Source: a virus. From it: a stretch of DNA of 61,002 bases. This document shows, piece by piece, positions 25,585-61,002 of this stretch. Every line of letters begins with the position of its first letter. The stretch's first letter is position 1. The stretch lies in IMG/VR virus record IMGVR_UViG_3300028841_000403. One strand, given 5' to 3'. Under the pieces are notes generated by a model, which saw nothing but the letters and a program-made list of their open reading frames with translations, made no database searches and was not told where the DNA came from. The position numbers and the translations under genes are program-made.

Positions 25585-26478
25585 TCAGGAGCCTTGGGCC
25601 AGGTAAAGCTCTGCCATTTGGCGTAAGGCTCCCGTCCGGGTGAGGTTCCCCGTCTTGTCCTGCTCCAGCGCGCGCTCGATGGCGCGGTTGAGGATCATGG
25701 CGGAGTGCGCGTCCACCGTCCGGGTGCCGAAGACGGAGGAGAGGGGGGCCTGCTTCTTCGTCCCCTTCCCGGCCTGCCCGTCCTGCTCGGCGTAGAGCTG
25801 CACCAGGTCGGGGAGGCTCGCGCCGAAGACATCCAGCATGATCCGTAGGGCCGTGGCGCTGTTCTTCACCTGGCCGGCCACGCCTGCCTCGCCCAGGGCG
25901 TCCATGAACTCGTCGTAGTCCTTGAACCGGGCGGCGAGCACCTCCCCCTTGGAGGCGGCCTCCACCTCGGCGAAGACGCGCTTGATGTCCTGGGCCTCGT
26001 CCGGCAGGAAGGCCAGGGTGATGTTCGTCCACTCCAGGGCGGCGGACGGCTTCCCCTCCGCGGTGATCTCCGCCAGCAGGCCCAGGGTCTTGTCGTCCAG
26101 GCCGCAGGCCTTCTTCAGGTCCAGGTCCGGGATGGATTCGTAGAGGTCCTTGAGGATGGCGAGGTCGTCCTCCCCCGCGATCGCGTTGTGGGAAAGCTGG
26201 ATGGCCACCTGCTCCCCGTGGGAGAGGGCGTCCCGCGTGACCACGAAGGTGGCGCCCGGCAGGCCGGCGGCCTTGCCCGCCTTGCAGCGGTGGTTCCCCG
26301 AGAGGACCTTCCACTTTCCCGTGGCGGGGTTCCACATGGCGAAGGGGCAGGAGCTGAGGCAGCCGTCCCGGCGGATGTTCTCCACCAGCTGCTGGAACTG
26401 CTCATGCCGCATGAAGCGGGCGTTGTGGTCCAGGAGCTCCAGCTCCTCCCAGGGCAGAAAGAGAGTCTCAACCTTCAT
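25585..26478 (-). CDS. ParB-like nuclease (ParB/Srx N-terminal domain) protein
   Basis: 297 aa. ...LELLDHNARFMRHEQFQQLVENIRRDG...WKVLSGNHRCKA... are ParBc-type motifs. Confidence 0.7.
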   Translation of the reverse strand: MKVETLFLPWEELELLDHNARFMRHEQFQQLVENIRRDGCLSSCPFAMWNPATGKWKVLSGNHRCKAGKAAGLPGATFVVTRDALSHGEQVAIQLSHNAIAGEDDLAILKDLYESIPDLDLKKACGLDDKTLGLLAEITAEGKPSAALEWTNITLAFLPDEAQDIKRVFAEVEAASKGEVLAARFKDYDEFMDALGEAGVAGQVKNSATALRIMLDVFGASLPDLVQLYAEQDGQAGKGTKKQAPLSSVFGTRTVDAHSAMILNRAIERALEQDKTGNLTRTGALRQMAELYLAQGS

Positions 26479-27832
26479 TCTTCAGCGCCTCCCAACGCTT
26501 CAGCACCTCGTCCAGGGAGGCCTCGCCGATGGGGCCCCCGTAGTTCAGGGCGAACTTGAAGCCCACGGCCTGGTCCTCCGGCGAGGCGTCCTTGCGCCCC
26601 AGGAGCCGGAAGACATTGCGGTACTTCATGGACTGGGGCCGCTGGCTGAACGCGGTCGTGACCATGGAGTGGATGCGGCGCTTCGTGACCCGCTCGATGA
26701 GCAGCCGTGCCTCCCGCGAGGTGGCCGCCATGACCACCAGCTTGGCGGCGCGGCGGTGGCCCGCCAGCACGCTGAAGTCCGACATGAGGTAGACCGAGGG
26801 GGGCTCGACCCCCGCCGGCGTGCCCTTCATGGAGGTGCTGATGGCGAAGACGCCCAGCAGCGCGCCGTTGAAGAGCACCGCGTAGGCCGCCGTCACGGAG
26901 CCGGGGCGGATCCGCTCGTTGAGATACATGGAGCGCAGGCCGTTGAACTCCCCGGCGGAGAGGGCCTGAATCGCAAGTCGCCCCCCCCCCTCATTTAGCT
27001 GCTCGGGCTTCACGCGGGGGATCCGCGGGGCGGTCACATTCTGGTGGGGGACCACCACCTGCTTGCGGTCCGTGCCGCCGGCGTAGATGTGGAAGTCGGC
27101 GCCGCGCGCCGTGTTCTGAACCCGGCCCCGGAGGCGGGCGGGGGCGTCCTCACCCGCCAGGGGCCCCTGGGTCACAACGGCCCAGGCTTGCCTGCCCTCC
27201 AGGTTGCGGAGGAGGGAGGCGAGGGAGGGAGCGTCCAGCGGCTCCGGGGAGGGGCGGCCGCGCCAGTCGAACAGGGCGTCCAGGTGCTTCCAGAAGGTGC
27301 CCCCCAGGTCCATGCCCTGGATCCATACGAAGCCGCCCTCCTGGTCCAGCATCCAGCGGGACTGGAAGACGAGCAGGTCTTCCGCGTGGAAGGCCTCGAG
27401 GCGGAGCGTCAGCTTGGCCAGCTTTTCCAGCACCTTCTCGTGGAGGGCCGGGAACTGGGTCTGGTAGGCGCCGGCGAGGCGCGCGTAGAAGCTGTTGCCG
27501 TCCCGCTTGCACCAGGCCTCTGCCATGTCCCCGAGGATCCGGATGGTGGCCACCAGGCCCTCCGGCGTCTCCATGTAGGGCTGGAGCCACGCCAGGCTGT
27601 CCTGGTGCTCGGCGCTGAGGCTGAGGTCCAGCCGCTCGCCGGCGAGGTAGGAACCCAGCGCAGCGCTCAGCAGGCTGGAGTCCTGCGCGAGGTGCGCCAT
27701 CGGCAGGTCCACCAGGGACCTCTGGAGCGCGAACTCCTGCGCGCATCCGTGGTAGAGACGCTTTGCGCCCCATCCCTGGATGATCGGCTTGAGCTGCGAG
27801 ATGACCTCGCGGGGGACGGTGGCGAGGAACAT
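26468..27832 (-). CDS. Large hypothetical protein (454 aa), first gene of a late operon. It contains an in-frame G10 tract.
   Basis: A continuous ORF that overlaps the ParB-like gene by 11 nt. No family was recognised with confidence. The G10 tract encodes ...NEGGGRLAIQ.... Confidence 0.6.
   Translation of the reverse strand: MFLATVPREVISQLKPIIQGWGAKRLYHGCAQEFALQRSLVDLPMAHLAQDSSLLSAALGSYLAGERLDLSLSAEHQDSLAWLQPYMETPEGLVATIRILGDMAEAWCKRDGNSFYARLAGAYQTQFPALHEKVLEKLAKLTLRLEAFHAEDLLVFQSRWMLDQEGGFVWIQGMDLGGTFWKHLDALFDWRGRPSPEPLDAPSLASLLRNLEGRQAWAVVTQGPLAGEDAPARLRGRVQNTARGADFHIYAGGTDRKQVVVPHQNVTAPRIPRVKPEQLNEGGGRLAIQALSAGEFNGLRSMYLNERIRPGSVTAAYAVLFNGALLGVFAISTSMKGTPAGVEPPSVYLMSDFSVLAGHRRAAKLVVMAATSREARLLIERVTKRRIHSMVTTAFSQRPQSMKYRNVFRLLGRKDASPEDQAVGFKFALNYGGPIGEASLDEVLKRWEALKNEG
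26981..26990 (-). repeat. Homopolymer tract: C10 on the plus strand, G10 in the coding strand
   Basis: The plus strand reads tcgcaagtcg cccccccccc tcattt. The tract lies inside the 454-aa ORF and is in frame as assembled. Confidence 0.95.
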
Positions 27833-27908
27833 GGCCGAGTGGAGCGGGCGGCAGGTTTCGAGTCTGCGTTTTCGCGCGGGGAGCGCGATGTCTTGCCCCT
27901 AGACGACG

Positions 27909-27957
27909 CCCGCCAGGGTGACCTCCAGCCATCAGCGTGCTGGAGGACCCTGGCGGG
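27909..27957 (-). other. Strong stem-loop in the leader of the 27832 operon
   Basis: cccgccagggt(ga)cctccagc - 9-nt loop - gctggagg accctggcggg. That gives 11+8 bp of pairing, directly adjacent to late motif copy 3. Confidence 0.7.
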
Positions 27958-30520: not shown

Positions 30521-30994
30521 CTACCGGCCGCCGAGACAGGCGGCCGCGAGCAGGCCGAAGACGATGAGCAGGGCCGAGAAGATGACCGCGGCGTTGATCA
30601 CCTTCGCGCTCTCCGTCGCCTCCGTGTCCTTGAGGTCCCAGTGCAGCAGGCGCATGCCCAGGCGCGTGTGGTCCAGGGCGTGGAAGGCCACCAAGGCGCA
30701 GACGATGGCCGCGCCACCGAGGTGCGGCGCCAGCTTCACGCGGAAGAGGATGGCCTTCGCCTGGACCACCTGCTCCCACTTGGAGTCGTCGGCGCCGACG
30801 AGCTGCGCGCCCCACCACACCAGGTCGAAGAGCAGCCAGAGCACGGCGATGACGCCGACGATGGCCAGCGCCTTCACGATCTTGTGGCGCGTGGCGTCGT
30901 CCAGCTTCCAGGCCGGCCGGAAGAACTCCCACCAGCGCTTCGGCGCCTCGATGGGGGTCTGAAGGTTGATCGGGGGGGCGGGCTGCTCTGCCAT
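30521..30994 (-). CDS. Holin-like membrane protein
   Basis: 157 aa from the ATG at 30994 (AAGGAGG SD). It has about three TM segments and lies immediately 5' of the endolysin. Confidence 0.6.
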   Translation of the reverse strand: MAEQPAPPINLQTPIEAPKRWWEFFRPAWKLDDATRHKIVKALAIVGVIAVLWLLFDLVWWGAQLVGADDSKWEQVVQAKAILFRVKLAPHLGGAAIVCALVAFHALDHTRLGMRLLHWDLKDTEATESAKVINAAVIFSALLIVFGLLAAACLGGR

Positions 30995-31843: not shown

Positions 31844-31995
31844 GTCGGCTCCGTCCTGGCTGCCAGACCGGGGCCCAGGGGCGCCCGCGCGCGATCCGCC
31901 CGTCCGGCCTGGTGACGGCAGGCTCGATGGGCAGAGCGCCAGCGGACCCGCGGGAGCGGGAGCGGCGGGTTGGGGGGGATGGATGGCGAGGGGGC

Positions 31996-36000: not shown

Positions 36001-36260
36001 GGTTCATCTCCATTCCAGAGCGGAACGCCTTGGGCATCGAGCTTGATGCCTTTGGGCGCGCGGCGCGGGTAGAGGCCGGGGATGTAGCGCCGGACCTCTT
36101 CGCACCAGATTTTGTAGGGCCATCGCTCGCGGCGGCCGAAGGGATAGGCCTTCTTCACCAGCGCACGGGCTTCGGTGAGCTTGCCTTTCGCCACCAGGCC
36201 ACGAGCCTCGTTGAGGAGCGGGACCAGCGCTTGCACGGAGCGCGCGCGCCAATTGCTCAC
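35997..36260 (-). CDS. Hypothetical protein
   Basis: 87 aa; coupled ORF. Confidence 0.4.
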   Translation of the reverse strand: MSNWRARSVQALVPLLNEARGLVAKGKLTEARALVKKAYPFGRRERWPYKIWCEEVRRYIPGLYPRRAPKGIKLDAQGVPLWNGDEP

Positions 36261-36583
36261 CGAACCTCCGCCAGCGGAAGCGGCTTCATCCTGATCCCAT
36301 CGCCCACGATAAAGAAGCGGTGGGCGTCACCAAGGGCGACGGCGGCCTTGTTCAACTCCTCCACGAGGCCTTCCATGAACTCCGGCGTGTTGCATCGCTT
36401 TGATTCGGCGGCGTAGGACGCGAGGTCTGTCAAGGCCTTCTCGATGTCGTCCATGCGCCCGATGCGGTGGAGTGGATCATCCTCGTTCACGCATCTCCAG
36501 CCGCTCTCCTTCACCCCTTGAATGGATGGCCACCAGTTCATCAGCTCGTCACAGGTCCGGCAGCGCTGGACATCACTCATCAC
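36257..36583 (-). CDS. Hypothetical protein
   Basis: 108 aa; coupled ORF. Confidence 0.4.
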   Translation of the reverse strand: MMSDVQRCRTCDELMNWWPSIQGVKESGWRCVNEDDPLHRIGRMDDIEKALTDLASYAAESKRCNTPEFMEGLVEELNKAAVALGDAHRFFIVGDGIRMKPLPLAEVR

Positions 36584-36734
36584 GGCTACCTTCCCTGCGG
36601 TCGAAGTCGCGGCGCTCTTCCACCTGCTTCCGGCAGAAGAGGGCCTTCCCCTCCTTGTCCCTGCCCTGGGAGATTGCGCCGCGCTTCACCTGGTAGCCGG
36701 CCGCGCGCCAGTCGTCGTAGGTCTTCATCTTCAT
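36573..36734 (-). CDS. Small protein with an ArdC-N-like motif
   Basis: 53 aa: MKMKTYDDWRAAGYQVKRGAISQGRDKEGKALF.... Its ATG overlaps the true methyltransferase stop (ATGA at 36731..36734). In the ORF track it is fused to the methylase by the frameshift. Confidence 0.45.
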   Translation of the reverse strand: MKMKTYDDWRAAGYQVKRGAISQGRDKEGKALFCRKQVEERRDFDRREGSRDE

Positions 36735-37877
36735 GCCAGCTCCTTGAAGAGGGGCCCGCCCTGCGGGTCGTACTCGTGGATCCGTGCCCGCGCCATGGAG
36801 GCGTATTCCGGGTTCAGCTCGATCCCCACGAACTCGCGGCCCAGCTTGAGGGCCGCGCATCCGGTGGTCCCCGAGCCACAGAAAGGGTCCAGAACTCGCC
36901 CCCCCCCCAGCACTTCCGGCGAGGATGCAGAGTTCGGCCAGCTTGATGGGCATGGTTGCGAAATGCGCGCCCTTGAAGGGCGTGGTGGCCACGGTCCAGA
37001 CGCTGCGCTTGTTCCGGCCATTGGCGGGCGCGGCCTGGTCAAGGCGAAGGGTGTTGTTGGGCTGGCCAGCGCGGTTCACTTCCCCTGAGCGTTCAGCCTT
37101 CCCACCCTGGGCGCGATGAGGGGCAACGCGGGCGAAGGTGGATTCTGCGAGTGGCTCGCGGATCTCCTCCGCGTCGAAGTAGTAGTCGAAGGCGCGCCAC
37201 CTGGGCATGGTGTTTTCGGGATCGTCCTCGGTGGGATCGGGGAGAGTTTCCGACAGATCCGGGTCCGCGCTCCACTCCATCGTGTCCCTGGCGCGCCAGC
37301 GCGTGGGCTTGCCGGACTTGGAGAGGAGGAAGAGATACTCGTGGCTCTTGGTGCAGCGGTCCCGGACGCTTTCCGGCATCGGGTTCGGCTTGTGCCAGAT
37401 GATGTCCTGGCGAAGCCACCAGCCGGCCGCCTGAAGGGCGAAGGCCACGCGCCAGGGGATGCCCACGAGGTCCTTGTGCTTGAGGTCGCCAGCGGCGCGG
37501 TGTTTCACTCCTCCGGCCGCGGCCCGATCACGCCGGAAGCTGCGCAGGGCATGGGAGCTTCGGAACTGCGCGTGAGGGGCAGTCGAGCCCTCAAGGGCAC
37601 TGGATTCCATGGCGGGCCCGTTCGCACGGGTGCAGTAACTGTCGCCGATGTTGAGCCAGAGCGTGCCGTGGGGCTTCAGGATGCGGCGCACCTCTTCCAG
37701 GACTTCCACTAAGGCCTCGGCGAAGGCCTCAGGCGTCTCCTCCAGCCCCATCTGGCCGTCCACGCCGTAGTCCCGCAGGCCCCAGTAGGGCGGCGAAGTG
37801 ACGCAGCAGTCCACCCACTCACTGGGAAGCGTGCGAAGGGTGGCGAGGGCATCGCCCTGGAGGACCTCCCAGCTCAT
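36731..37877 (-). pseudogene. Beta-class DNA methyltransferase (motif IV SPPY, suggesting N4-C or N6-A) with its frame broken at a G10 tract. It is either phase-variable, an assembly error, or a pseudogene.
   Basis: The N-part (frame of 37877) carries ...CCVTSPPYWGLRDY... and ...AHFATMPIKLAELCILAGS. The C-part (frame of 36731..37042) carries ...RVLDPFCGSGTTGCAALKLGREFVGIELNPEY.... The two frames meet exactly at 36899..36908. Removing one G gives a 381-aa intact enzyme. Confidence 0.8.
36899..36908 (-). repeat. Homopolymer tract: C10 on the plus strand, G10 in the coding strand, at the methyltransferase frame break
   Basis: The plus strand reads agaactcgcc ccccccccag. Confidence 0.95.
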
Positions 37878-38407
37878 GCGCCGCCCCCCCGCAGAATCGA
37901 GCCCAGTAGCCCCTTGCGCCGCAGGTAGTCCATCGCGCTGTTGGGAAGCTCGTCCTTCCCCGTGTCGCGCCGGTAGGCCCAGGCGAGCTTGCGCACGAGC
38001 GCGGCAAGGTCGCGGCGCTCGGCCTCGCGGCTCACCACCGCCGGGTCCATCGGAATGAGCATCTGCTGGTAGATCCAGCGCGCTTCCCAGTTCTCGAGGG
38101 GGCTGTTCGGGTCAGGGTCGTGGATGACCTTTTCCCCGTAGGCCACGAGCGGGTGAAGCTCGCCGTCCGCCTTGCGGGCGAGGACGATGGAGTAGCCAGG
38201 GCATCTCCACTCGCTCAATCCAGCAGGGACCGAGAGGCAAGAGAGGCCGAACTCCCCCAGGACCAGCGCCCAGTGGGCCAACCAGCCCTCGTTCGAGACA
38301 TCCCCTTCCGGAATGCGGATCTCGTCCAGGCCGACCTCCAGGAGAGAGGCGAGGCAGGCCGCGTAGGCAAAGGGCATGCCCTTCTGCTTCTGGAACAAGG
38401 CCTTCAT
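37874..38407 (-). CDS. Hypothetical protein between the two methyltransferases (possible Cys/His peptidase-like fold)
   Basis: 177 aa from the ATG at 38407 (ATGA overlap with the C5-MTase stop). Cys in FAYAACLASLL and His/Asp in HPLVAYGEKVIHDPDP are only a weak hint. Confidence 0.4.
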   Translation of the reverse strand: MKALFQKQKGMPFAYAACLASLLEVGLDEIRIPEGDVSNEGWLAHWALVLGEFGLSCLSVPAGLSEWRCPGYSIVLARKADGELHPLVAYGEKVIHDPDPNSPLENWEARWIYQQMLIPMDPAVVSREAERRDLAALVRKLAWAYRRDTGKDELPNSAMDYLRRKGLLGSILRGGGA

Positions 38408-40368
38408 GCCGCCACCCCGAATTCCGCGCGGCGGTCCTCCACGATGGTCCGCACGAGGGCCTGGACCGTGTGGACGGGGCACATGTTGCCGATCATCTTC
38501 ACCTGGTCGCCCTTCTTGAGTTCGGAGCCATCCGGGCGCCTGAAGCTGAAGGTGTCGGGGAGGCCCATGGCGCGGGCCAGCTCGCGCGGCTGGAGCATGC
38601 GAAGCCCGATGTCAGCCAGCACGAACTCCTGGCCCTGGATCGTCACGGTGACGAGGGCGAAGCGGTCCTTGGTGTCCTGGGTCCGCATCGGATCGTCCAG
38701 CGGGTGCGTGTAGAACTCCGGCCGGTCCCCGGCGCCGTAGCGCTGGAGGAAGGCCGCCACCATGGCGTAGTGCTGGCCGTTCGCCGCCAGGGCCCCGATG
38801 GGCTCCGACATGGGGGATCCGGTGCATTCCCCGTTCAGGCGGGCGATGGAGGCCGCCACCACGGCGTGCCGGGCCTTCGTGGTCGCCGTCGAAAGGGGGG
38901 CGTCAGCGGGCCAGATGCTCCGGCTCGATGCCTGGTCAATGCCGACCAAGTGCGCCGCCCCCAGCTTCTCTTCCAGCAGCGCCGCCACGAGGGCGTGCTT
39001 CTGGCCGCAGGCCACCACCGTGCCCAGGGGCTCCTCGATGTTGAGGGCGCGGGGCGCCTGCCCCTCGCGCTCGCCGTAGCCGGTCTGGACCAGCGTGGCG
39101 GCCACCAGGGAGTTGTGGTCCTTGGAGGTGACGGTCGGCATAGGGGTGTCCACGCCCGCGCCTACCACGCCCGTGTAGTGCTTGGCGATGAAGGCCGCCT
39201 CAACCACGGCATGTCCTCCGCCGGTTGAGACGGTCCGAAGGGGCTCCTCTGCGGAGTAGGCGCAGGTCGCGTTGCTCTTGTGCATGTCCGTCCGGACCAT
39301 GGAAACGGCCACCAGGGCGCTGTCCGCCTTCGTGGTCACGGTTCCGATGGGCTGGTCCGCGCCGCGGGGCTCGCTCTGGCCGGCCCGGCCGCCCACGCCC
39401 ACCAGGCAGGGCGCGGCCAGAGCCTTCTCGCCGCGTTGGGCGCCAGTGACGGTCTTCATGGGTTCGTCCAGGGCCTCCACGCGGCCCCCATGCGTGAGGT
39501 TCACGATGAAGGGCTCGCCCGTGAGGACGAAGCGCTCGATGCCCGCCGCGATGCGCTTGAGCGTCTTCTCCGCCAGGGGCTTCTTGCGGTCGAAGATGCT
39601 GGGGCACGGAAGGGTGAAGTCAATGCACTCCGCCGCGGTGCGCCAGGGTGGCAACGCCGCGTCGAAGAGCCCAGCAGGCTTCTTCGGGTTCCGGTGCGTG
39701 GCCTCGGGCCAGCGGATCGGGATGCCGTCCTTCACCGCCTGCAGGAAGAACCGCCTCCGGATGGTGGGATCGCCGTAGTCGGCGGCGCAGAGGACACGGT
39801 GCTCCACCTCGTAGCCCAGGCCGCGAAGCTCCAGGATGAACGCGGCGAAGAACTCGCCTTTGCGCGCCTTGATCGGCTTCTCGAAGTGGCAGCTTTTCAC
39901 GGGGCAACGCTTGGCACCCGCGGGCCGTCCCTTGCAACCTCCTGAGTGGTCCTTGTGCAGCGGGCCCCAGTCCCGGAACTCGGGCACATTCTCCATCAGC
40001 AGCACCTTCACATCCGCCACCTTGAGGAAGCGATCCACCACCTCCTGGGCGTGGGAGCGCTGCTGGTCGCTGACGGGCTTGCCGCCGCGCGCCGTGGAGA
40101 AGTGGACGCAGCTCGGGCTGGCCCACAGCATGTTGATGGTCTGGCCGGCGAGGCCGAAGTCCGCGGCCGTGACCTCTTCGATGGCCTCGCGGCGGCACTC
40201 GATGCCGGGGAAGTTCTGGCGGGCGGTCTGGATCGCTTCGTCCCAGTGGTTCAGCGCGTAGCCGACCGTGCTTTCGGTCTGGATGCCCAGCTCGGCGAAG
40301 GCCTGGAGCTTGCCCTGCATCTCGCCGCCGGCGCCGCAGAAGAGGGACATGGTGACGGGCTTACGCAT
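38404..40368 (-). CDS. dcm: DNA (cytosine-5)-methyltransferase with eight tandem TRD-like units (candidate multispecific enzyme)
   Basis: 654 aa. Motif I is LFCGAGG, motif IV is SPSCVHFS, motif VI is ENVPEF, motif VIII is TIRRRFF, and motif X is GNMCPV. Residues about 300-575 hold 8 units of (D/E)xPxxT(V)T....(H)A(L/V)V spaced 32-44 aa apart. Confidence 0.85.
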   Translation of the reverse strand: MRKPVTMSLFCGAGGEMQGKLQAFAELGIQTESTVGYALNHWDEAIQTARQNFPGIECRREAIEEVTAADFGLAGQTINMLWASPSCVHFSTARGGKPVSDQQRSHAQEVVDRFLKVADVKVLLMENVPEFRDWGPLHKDHSGGCKGRPAGAKRCPVKSCHFEKPIKARKGEFFAAFILELRGLGYEVEHRVLCAADYGDPTIRRRFFLQAVKDGIPIRWPEATHRNPKKPAGLFDAALPPWRTAAECIDFTLPCPSIFDRKKPLAEKTLKRIAAGIERFVLTGEPFIVNLTHGGRVEALDEPMKTVTGAQRGEKALAAPCLVGVGGRAGQSEPRGADQPIGTVTTKADSALVAVSMVRTDMHKSNATCAYSAEEPLRTVSTGGGHAVVEAAFIAKHYTGVVGAGVDTPMPTVTSKDHNSLVAATLVQTGYGEREGQAPRALNIEEPLGTVVACGQKHALVAALLEEKLGAAHLVGIDQASSRSIWPADAPLSTATTKARHAVVAASIARLNGECTGSPMSEPIGALAANGQHYAMVAAFLQRYGAGDRPEFYTHPLDDPMRTQDTKDRFALVTVTIQGQEFVLADIGLRMLQPRELARAMGLPDTFSFRRPDGSELKKGDQVKMIGNMCPVHTVQALVRTIVEDRRAEFGVAA

Positions 40369-60706: not shown

Positions 60707-61002
60707 CCGAGGCCCCCAACATCGTGACCGTCACCCCGGTGCAGTTCGCCCACTCCCCCGGGCCCACGATCTGGAAGGTGGGGCTCACCACCTGCAGGTC
60801 GTAGACGCCAGGAACGGTGAGGGCCGCGATGACCTGAGAGGGCACCAGGTCCTGGCCCAGGAGGCTCTGGCGGCCGCGAACCGTGGACCCATCCGCCAGC
60901 GTCTCCCCGTACAGGAAGGCCTGCGCCCTGGCCTGGATTGTCGTCTGAAGAGCCGTCGCGTCCTGGCCAGTGATGGGCACAACATTGACGACGATGGCGT
61001 AG
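60699..61002 (-). CDS. J: Baseplate assembly protein J, C-terminal part (same gene as 1..971; 60862..61002 duplicates 1..141)
   Basis: The frame is open to the window end. The C-terminus is ...VIAALTVPGVYDLQVVSPTFQIVGPGEWANCTGVTVTMLGASDA, with the stop at 60699. Confidence 0.88.
   Translation of the reverse strand, partial: YAIVVNVVPITGQDATALQTTIQARAQAFLYGETLADGSTVRGRQSLLGQDLVPSQVIAALTVPGVYDLQVVSPTFQIVGPGEWANCTGVTVTMLGASDA
60862..61002. repeat. Terminal direct repeat, copy 2 (identical to 1..141)
   Basis: Direct comparison of the two window ends. Confidence 0.93.

Follow-up and report, generated by a model that had tools for sequence, protein, structure and literature searches.

Ten G's at the frame break of a temperate phage DNA methyltransferase gene: a candidate slippage switch, with a second tract in a predicted Mom-like gene

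Introduction

How does a DNA methyltransferase gene come to be divided between two reading frames exactly at a run of ten G's, and is such a break an accident or a device? The question is raised by the virus record IMGVR_UViG_3300028841_000403, a stretch of 61,002 nucleotides (nt) that was analysed at its full length and is called here the window. The run is written below as G10, and runs of other lengths likewise. The answer that we favour, and consider probable though far from settled, is that this genome carries selected, slippage-prone poly-G contingency tracts in its DNA-modification genes, the methylase allele recorded here being an OFF allele. It is the best supported reading because the tract recurs in divergent methylases, because G9 and G10 are found within identical flanks, and because the same genome has a second, conserved G10. 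An earlier note on this DNA had offered a switch, recoding and an assembly error without ranking them. The first of the three has held up best, while recoding suffers from relatives that are in frame, and assembly error from the repetition of the same sequence on 4-7 contigs.

The methylase gene and its frame break

The locus has the following elements:

36731..37877, minus strand: gene of a beta-class N6/N4 DNA methyltransferase, predicted from PF01555, in-silico tract variants and homologues; intact (381 amino acids) only with 9 or 12 G's
36899..36908, minus strand: G10 tract on the coding strand, encoding Gly-Gly-Gly in the loop before motif I, which binds S-adenosylmethionine (AdoMet); the point of the frame break
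37767..37799, minus strand: motif IV, TSPPYWGLRDY (catalytic loop), a sequence motif
36860..36895, minus strand: motif I, VLDPFCGSGTTG (AdoMet binding), which as assembled is shifted by +1 from the frame of the N-terminal part
36573..37877, minus strand: open reading frame (ORF) of 434 amino acids as assembled; residues 1-327 of the methylase, continued out of frame into the small gene that follows
36573..36734, minus strand: downstream gene of 53 amino acids, whose start overlaps the methylase stop (ATGA); its PHROG matches are only to function-unknown families

The match to PF01555 is cut in two. Profile positions 1-181 correspond to residues 22-324 of the 434-amino-acid ORF, and positions 181-219 to the +1-frame ORF 36731..37042, starting from its residue 43; the N-terminal part scores 110.4 bits and the C-terminal part 51.8 bits, against a cut-off of 26.7. 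The earlier note had described an SPPY beta-class methylase in two frames that meet at the coding-strand G10 of 36899..36908, and the interruption of the profile match at position 181 confirms this. When the gene is read with G9, TSPPYW stands at residues 27-32 and VLDPFCGSGTTG at residues 329-340, so that motif IV precedes motif I in the beta-class order. The gene product is thus predicted to have the activity of a beta-class N6/N4 DNA methyltransferase. An SPPY-type motif IV is typical of N4-cytosine enzymes, and it is on this motif that an assignment to N4-cytosine or N6-adenine would rest here.

At the junction the coding strand reads GGA AGT GCT GGGGGGGGGG CGA GTT CTG GAC CCT TTC TGT GGC TCG GGG ACC ACC GGA. 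Deletion of one G in silico gives a protein of 381 amino acids that reads ILAGSAGGGRVLDPFCGSGTTG, which is the intact enzyme expected by the earlier note from nine G's. The length of the loop fits as well: AGSAGGGR-VLDPF in the G9 reading is equal in length to the consensus AGCPxGGT-VLDPF, and ~270 homologues have AG(C/S)PxGG(T/V)-VLDPF. Because of this agreement we regard G9 as the native in-frame state and G12 as the same loop with one residue more. Among the lengths constructed in silico, G9 and G12 give proteins of 381 and 382 amino acids with all motifs, and G8, G10 and G11 are out of frame. With ten G's the zero frame stays open for 107 codons and enters the 53-amino-acid downstream gene, so the predicted out-of-frame fusion to the next small gene is present as the 434-amino-acid ORF.

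A gene broken in this way may simply be dying. In that case a one-base insertion at a mutation-prone, tolerated and unselected run would have killed it recently, and decay would be under way. The 56 C-terminal codons past the frameshift speak against such decay. They are undamaged: no further lesion follows, and motif I is kept along with all the other motifs; 73 of 93 residues are identical to those of the relative L082. A Pfam scan of the plus-strand ORFs over the gene gave no match, and a promoter and terminator scan of 36300..38600 gave nothing that exceeded shuffles.

Ten G's in independent assemblies

The two ends of the window repeat each other, bases 1-141 being equal to 60862-61002. 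This overlap of 141 nt points to a de Bruijn assembler with k=141, and because of it the contig is taken as a closed circle of 60,861 bp. A Mu-type portal and a large terminase are encoded, as are baseplate and tail proteins and a tyrosine integrase; the window is a complete temperate phage of 60.9 kb. The G+C content (GC) is ~68%, and 0.90 at third codon positions (GC3). A nucleotide search of a cultured-phage collection found no close relative, with partial matches at 70-75% only. Searches of IMG/VR found none either, neither with the methylase (best 48%) nor, by single-sequence patterns, with the DAM-like/GNAT protein described below.

Is the tenth G real? Homopolymers are the commonest source of indel errors, and one G fewer makes a perfect gene, as would be expected if the true tract were G9, the gene intact and the frame break a product of sequencing or assembly. 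The identical frameshifted product of 434 amino acids is found, however, on 4-7 independent contigs from two pipelines (JGI and Logan assemblies), and a Logan contig (L081) matches 21.3 kb of the window at 100% identity, both G10 runs included. The phage is present in the Logan run SRR10823753 and in several JGI samples, 3300024274 among them. The second G10 of the same genome is read in frame, which means that runs of ten G's are not systematically miscounted, and no G9 product is on record. An artefact is therefore very improbable.

An ON allele was also sought through the 53-amino-acid gene called separately. The sole match was a 1.66-kb contig (L177), which ends 84 nt before the tract. The gene of 107 amino acids just downstream (36260..36580) is present on nine contigs, and the frameshifted methylase together with its upstream neighbour of 177 amino acids on seven. 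From this difference in counts, one extra long contig (50-200 kb) differs in or near the methylase region and might carry another allele.

The tract loop in related methylases

The codons at the loop are given below for those homologues with Gly-Gly-Gly at this place whose DNA was retrievable:

Window: GCT-G10-CGA; out of frame
L082: GGA AGT GCT-G9-CGA GTT CTG GA; in frame, flanks identical to the window
L091/L092: GGA AGT GCT-G9, then GTA; in frame
L180: CCG GGG GGG GGT (G9); in frame, phage of 69% GC
L182: CGC GGG GGG GGG ACT (G9); in frame, phage of 45% GC
L181: GGC GGT GGC; in frame, without a tract

The methylases of L082, L091/L092, L180 and L182 are just ~47-49% identical overall to the window enzyme. 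At least three different codon contexts surround the tract at this loop, in genomes that range from 45% to 69% GC, and the chance of three consecutive GGG codons, estimated from the Gly codon usage of each phage, is 0.8-2.9%. A comparison of tract length in related genomes had been proposed in the earlier note, and it gives runs of G9 or longer, in frame, in all four of these lineages and G10 here, one extra G being the difference between the window tract and its in-frame counterpart.

The tract is by no means general in the family. Ordinary codons and no tract were found at the loop in the closest homologues (55% and 50%) and in the cultured-phage homologues LESphi3, vB_PL1 and PHB04, and a long run at the methylase loop was found in 0/80 IMG/VR homologues. 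DNA-pattern scans for the tract in its motif-I context found none in IMG/VR and, in the JGI metagenome set, five unrelated methylases with G7/G8; in genome contigs they found none, and then a single chance match in Paracoccus that is not a methylase.

The flanks of the tract are conserved at the level of DNA:

36888..36917, minus strand: conserved block GGAAGTGCT-Gn-CGAGTTCTGGA of rare codons, identical in L082 except for the tract length

The C-terminal 281 nt of the gene are 76% identical to L082, with most synonymous sites changed, and the longest stretch without a difference between the two is formed by the nine codons around the tract (permutation p = 0.025). These codons are rare in the phage: AGT makes up 0.7% of Ser codons, GCT 3.7% of Ala, GGA 6.7% of Gly, CGA 4.6% of Arg and GTT 4.5% of Val. 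The combination GGAAGTGCT-G9 is present in L091/L092 too. Since the tract recurs against codon usage and its rare flanking codons are conserved, the comparison argues that it is retained at one permissive loop, where it also appears to have arisen more than once. Both points, the recurrence (which includes the 45%-GC phage) and the conserved rare flanking codons, also count against a dead gene. The rare-codon flanks themselves could be due to slippage tuning, to delimitation of the tract or to a transferred short block.

Both G10 tracts of the window have rare AT-ending flanks, GGA AGT GCT / CGA GTT at the methylase tract (36888..36917) and CTA AAT GAG / CGA CTT GCG ATT at the second one (26972..27000), and the rare Arg codon CGA lies directly 3' of both. 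The genome L091, one of those with the methylase tract, has a C8 on the coding strand at 2353-2360 too, in codons 4-6 of a YfdP-like gene. It is a possible further contingency tract.

The same comparison bears on recoding, in which some enzyme would be restored from the G10 gene, either by RNA polymerase slipping on the C10 template or by tRNA-Gly slipping +1 on GGG-G in the ribosome. A homopolymer does lie at the frame junction, as in the +1 frameshifting of prfB and the transcriptional slippage of Thermus dnaX and IS elements, where two frames also join at a slippery homopolymer. After the run the zero frame of G10 continues GCG AGU U, with AGU the rarest Ser codon (0.7%), and nucleotide conservation reaches beyond the run. 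However, relatives with the same flanks are in frame with G9, and the out-of-frame arrangement is not conserved in L082, L091/L092, L180 or L182. In contrast to the known cases, the site has no stop or hungry codon (the zero frame is open for 107 codons) and no conserved stimulator, and the run is of G/C and not of A/T. A scan of the window for Rfam families, and for these only, gave no match at the gathering threshold. Hybrids of rG:dC are the least slippage-prone for RNA polymerase, which also counts against recoding. Taken together, these points make recoding improbable.

A second tract in a predicted Mom-like gene

The other G10 of the genome belongs to a gene with a different domain composition:

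26981..26990, minus strand: second G10 on the coding strand, in frame, encoding E-GGG-R (residues 281-284) in an interdomain linker
26468..27832, minus strand: DAM-like (PF22555) plus GNAT-like (PF22559) protein of 454 amino acids, from Pfam, an AlphaFold model and Foldseek

The DAM-like domain PF22555 covers residues 2-273 and the GNAT-like domain PF22559 residues 285-449 (2.5e-42). The relative L090, with 78% nucleotide identity, keeps the second G10 although the codons on both sides have changed. In more distant homologues the run is missing and the linker is shorter by two residues.

The AlphaFold model has a predicted local distance difference test score (pLDDT) of 83. Foldseek returned a GNAT fold for the C-terminal domain and E. 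coli Dam for the N-terminal one; the match to Mu Mom (8bv8_B) was at rank 8, with E = 3e-4 and a target-length-normalised TM-score (TMt) of 0.55. Sequence and profile searches against PDB gave no match and no detectable sequence homology to Mu Mom. The model makes it probable that the 454-amino-acid protein is a Mom-like DNA-modification enzyme. Where Dam has DPPY, homologues of the DAM-like domain have FPP(F/V)...G.YE (alignment A1, columns ~195-215), and the window protein and its 84% relative are without even the FPP(F/V) motif, reading GMDLG--GTFW. To judge from these sequences, the DAM-like domain probably serves to bind DNA or adenine and is not a methylase.

In Burkholderia phage vB_PL1 (L175, PV072756.1 51553-53036) a tract-less methylase homologue adjoins a gene annotated as 'Mom-like DNA modification protein'. 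Since these genes are adjacent there, the pairing of a methylase with a Mom-type gene recurs.

The tRNA-Gly beside the second gene

Just upstream of the DAM-like/GNAT gene lies the only tRNA gene of the phage:

27840..27913, minus strand: non-canonical tRNA-Gly with anticodon CCC and C37, found by ARAGORN, 7 nt upstream of the DAM-like/GNAT gene

The Rfam tRNA model fails to detect it, even at E up to 1. Its orthologue in L090 (7055-7128) has the anticodon UCC and three compensatory pairs in the anticodon stem. A tRNA-Gly was found upstream on the same strand at 41 of 83 homologous DAM-like/GNAT loci (L093-L172 among them), whose genes have no G tract; the gap to the gene is mostly ~70 nt, and some loci have two tandem tRNAs. 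All typed tRNAs at these loci are of the Gly type, with anticodons ACC, UCC, CCC and GCC. Position 34 thus varies (A, U, C, G), and G1-C2-G3, C35-C36, U73 and the encoded CCA are kept, and with them the identity elements for glycyl-tRNA synthetase (GlyRS). The leader 27909..27957, from the late-promoter 12-mer to the tRNA-Gly, is largely conserved in L090 and may be a processing or attenuation element for the transcript of tRNA plus gene.

What is this tRNA for? Mom of phage Mu is a GNAT enzyme that makes N6-carbamoylmethyl-adenine with Gly-tRNA-Gly (PMC13219725; PMC7261163), which it takes as glycyl donor (PMC13219725). Because of this use, the tRNA-Gly is best read as the substrate of the DAM-like/GNAT enzyme; by analogy it looks like a dedicated substrate tRNA for a second family of DNA modifiers that is unrelated to Mom in sequence. 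The Mom paper (PMC13219725) mentions neither phage-encoded tRNA-Gly genes nor Dam-like fusions. The second-tract gene shares with mom a C-terminal GNAT fold, a place in a late operon of a Mu-like phage and a tight link to tRNA-Gly. In contrast to Mom, its protein is fused to a DAM-like domain, has its own non-canonical tRNA-Gly gene and shows no sequence similarity, so the resemblance is limited to the fold and the tRNA-Gly context. The control differs too: Mu regulates mom via Dam/OxyR and Com, whereas the phage gene has a G10 inside its ORF.

A role for the tRNA in the frame break itself was considered, namely that of a sufD-type suppressor that reads GGGG as one codon and so repairs the G10 methylase. 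The idea has some appeal, as this single tRNA of the phage decodes the codon of the tract, has a pyrimidine at position 37 and a loop C-U-CCC-C-G with four C's, and adjoins the other G10 gene. It was rejected, and we give it next to no chance. A tRNA-Gly is the family-wide partner of DAM-like/GNAT genes without any G tract (41/83 loci, four anticodons), the L090 orthologue has anticodon UCC, and the genes of the phage show no avoidance of in-frame GGG-G (36%, with a baseline of 39%). Quadruplet reading would moreover disrupt the in-frame G10 of the neighbouring gene, and the use of Gly-tRNA-Gly by Mu Mom (PMC13219725) already explains the linkage.

Could the runs be due to chance?

Another DNA methyltransferase gene lies near the methylase and is listed here for context:

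38404..40368, minus strand: C5-cytosine methyltransferase of 654 amino acids (PF00145), a neighbour without a long homopolymer

A model of independent, identically distributed bases expects 0.85 C runs and 0.74 G runs of at least 10, ~1.6 in total, and a synonymous-codon shuffle of the phage genes expects 0.65 runs of at least 10 and 1.26 of at least 9. About one such run in 61 kb was the expectation given in the earlier note as a caveat, and it was a sound one: the tract taken alone is not significant and proves nothing. An excess of long runs was therefore dropped as an argument, the count being within the synonymous-shuffle null, and localisation and conservation were used in its place.

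The genome has only two runs of at least 8. Both are G10, both are on the coding strand and both are inside DNA-modification genes; a synonymous shuffle puts at least two runs of 9 or longer into the three DNA-modification genes with P = 0.0027. Runs of G7 are found at 37884..37890, 30972..30978 and 31972..31978. G/C runs of at least 7 are depleted about two-fold (5 observed against 11.6 expected from the synonymous-codon shuffle), which suggests general selection against slippery runs, with the two tracts excepted. Three things go beyond chance: that the tract lies just where the frame breaks, that relatives have conserved it, and that a further tract is found in another DNA-modification gene.

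Weighing the readings

Several observations weigh against selected contingency tracts. All 4-7 contigs of this phage lineage have one tract length, G10. By exact look-up in ~15 billion public proteins, the products of G8, G9, G11 and G12 methylase alleles are absent, and so are those of G8, G9, G11, G12 and G13 versions of the second-tract gene; assemblies give the majority allele only, and minority tract lengths are hidden in them. Tract-length variants of L082, L091 and L090 are absent by exact look-up as well, each of these phages being on only 1-2 contigs. Long G/C runs are no more numerous than a codon shuffle predicts. Finally, the relatives were found by full-length protein matches, which bias the sample to ON alleles and make its ON:OFF ratio uninformative.

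Some of these points are also those that favour a dead gene. G10 is on all available contigs, no ON allele of this phage is on record, the long-run count lies within the shuffle null, and phage methylases are accessory and often lost. Besides the intact C-terminal part and the loop comparison given above, two further points stand against this explanation: runs of 7-8 are otherwise avoided by the genome, and a G10 reverts appreciably in any large phage population, so that 'dead' and 'switchable' differ mainly in whether selection acts. We consider a dead gene unlikely, though the likeliest of the alternatives.

Slippage-prone tracts under selection are thus our preferred reading. The tract, the frame break, the reproducibility of G10, the recurrence in relatives and the difference of G9 and G10 between lineages were observed directly. 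From them we infer the rest, that is, the rate and reversibility of switching, the activity and target of the methylase and the benefit of bet-hedging. Slipped-strand mispairing in replication, to which runs of eight or more G's are known to be prone, would add or remove single G's at the methylase tract. G9 or G12 would then give the full enzyme of 381 or 382 amino acids (ON), and G10 or G11 products without the AdoMet-binding half (OFF). The population consensus would have the methylase OFF, one G above the in-frame state of the relatives, and the Mom-like gene ON. The two tracts together may make the phage population a mixture of DNA-modification states, as a hedge between two kinds of host, one restricting unmodified DNA and the other attacking DNA that is modified.

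A bolder proposal, for which our confidence is low, is that environmental temperate phages run a hypermutable 'modification switchboard', in which tracts have come repeatedly, and at least partly independently, to the motif-I loop of beta-class methylases and, in this lineage, also to the linker of a Mom-like, tRNA-Gly-dependent enzyme of adenine hypermodification, with the rare-codon flanks as part of the device. Virions in up to four DNA-modification states would then come out of each burst, as a hedge between classical restriction-modification and modification-dependent (Type IV) restriction. The rare AT-ending codons conserved around both tracts would tune slippage or mark the limits of the tract and would not be a neutral relic.

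Comparison with known switches

Repeat-switched Type III mod genes of Haemophilus, Neisseria, Helicobacter and Moraxella have been surveyed (PMC7383803, PMC11868660). The locus shares with these phasevarion-type methylases a simple repeat inside the ORF, where slipped-strand gain or loss of units toggles between a full-length and a truncated frame. In contrast to the Type III mod genes, the phage enzyme is an orphan, beta-class and Type II-like, carried by a temperate phage and with no restriction partner; its tract is mononucleotide and in the loop before motif I, and the likely pay-off is anti-restriction hedging of virions, not regulation of host genes. The comparison with Neisseria, Haemophilus and Helicobacter made in the earlier note thus fits in mechanism and fails in the type of enzyme. 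The locus is not filed here as a phasevarion, the predicted methylase being an orphan phage enzyme.

Closer in the kind of repeat are the poly-G contingency genes of Campylobacter and Helicobacter, methylases included, with tracts of G8-G11 (PhasomeIt survey, PMC6321876). There too a coding-strand tract of G9-10 acts as an ON/OFF switch whose position is conserved and whose length differs between strains. Those hosts, however, are without MutS/MutL-type repair, and their switching has been measured, whereas that of the phage locus is predicted. Tract lengths vary in these bacteria, whereas the contigs of the phage lineage all have one length, and in a phage genome of 68% GC the G runs are less improbable a priori.

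Biological meaning

Repeat-switched methylases of bacteria are the textbook bet-hedging device of host-adapted species, and phage-borne versions are hardly treated in the searchable literature; a 2025 review of phase variation mentions no phage or prophage loci. The mechanism is already known. What is new is its carrier, an environmental high-GC temperate phage, as well as the recurrence at one site and the presence of a further tract in a Mom-like gene.

The recurrent G9 at one loop is a concrete, testable site, and the second tract would extend the same logic to a Mom-like hypermodification gene. If phages do gate anti-restriction modification by slippery tracts, a clonal lysate would be epigenetically mixed, and measurements of host range and of escape from restriction would depend on the state of the tract. 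In that case 'frameshifted' methylase genes of phages and metagenomes should not be discarded as pseudogenes or errors.

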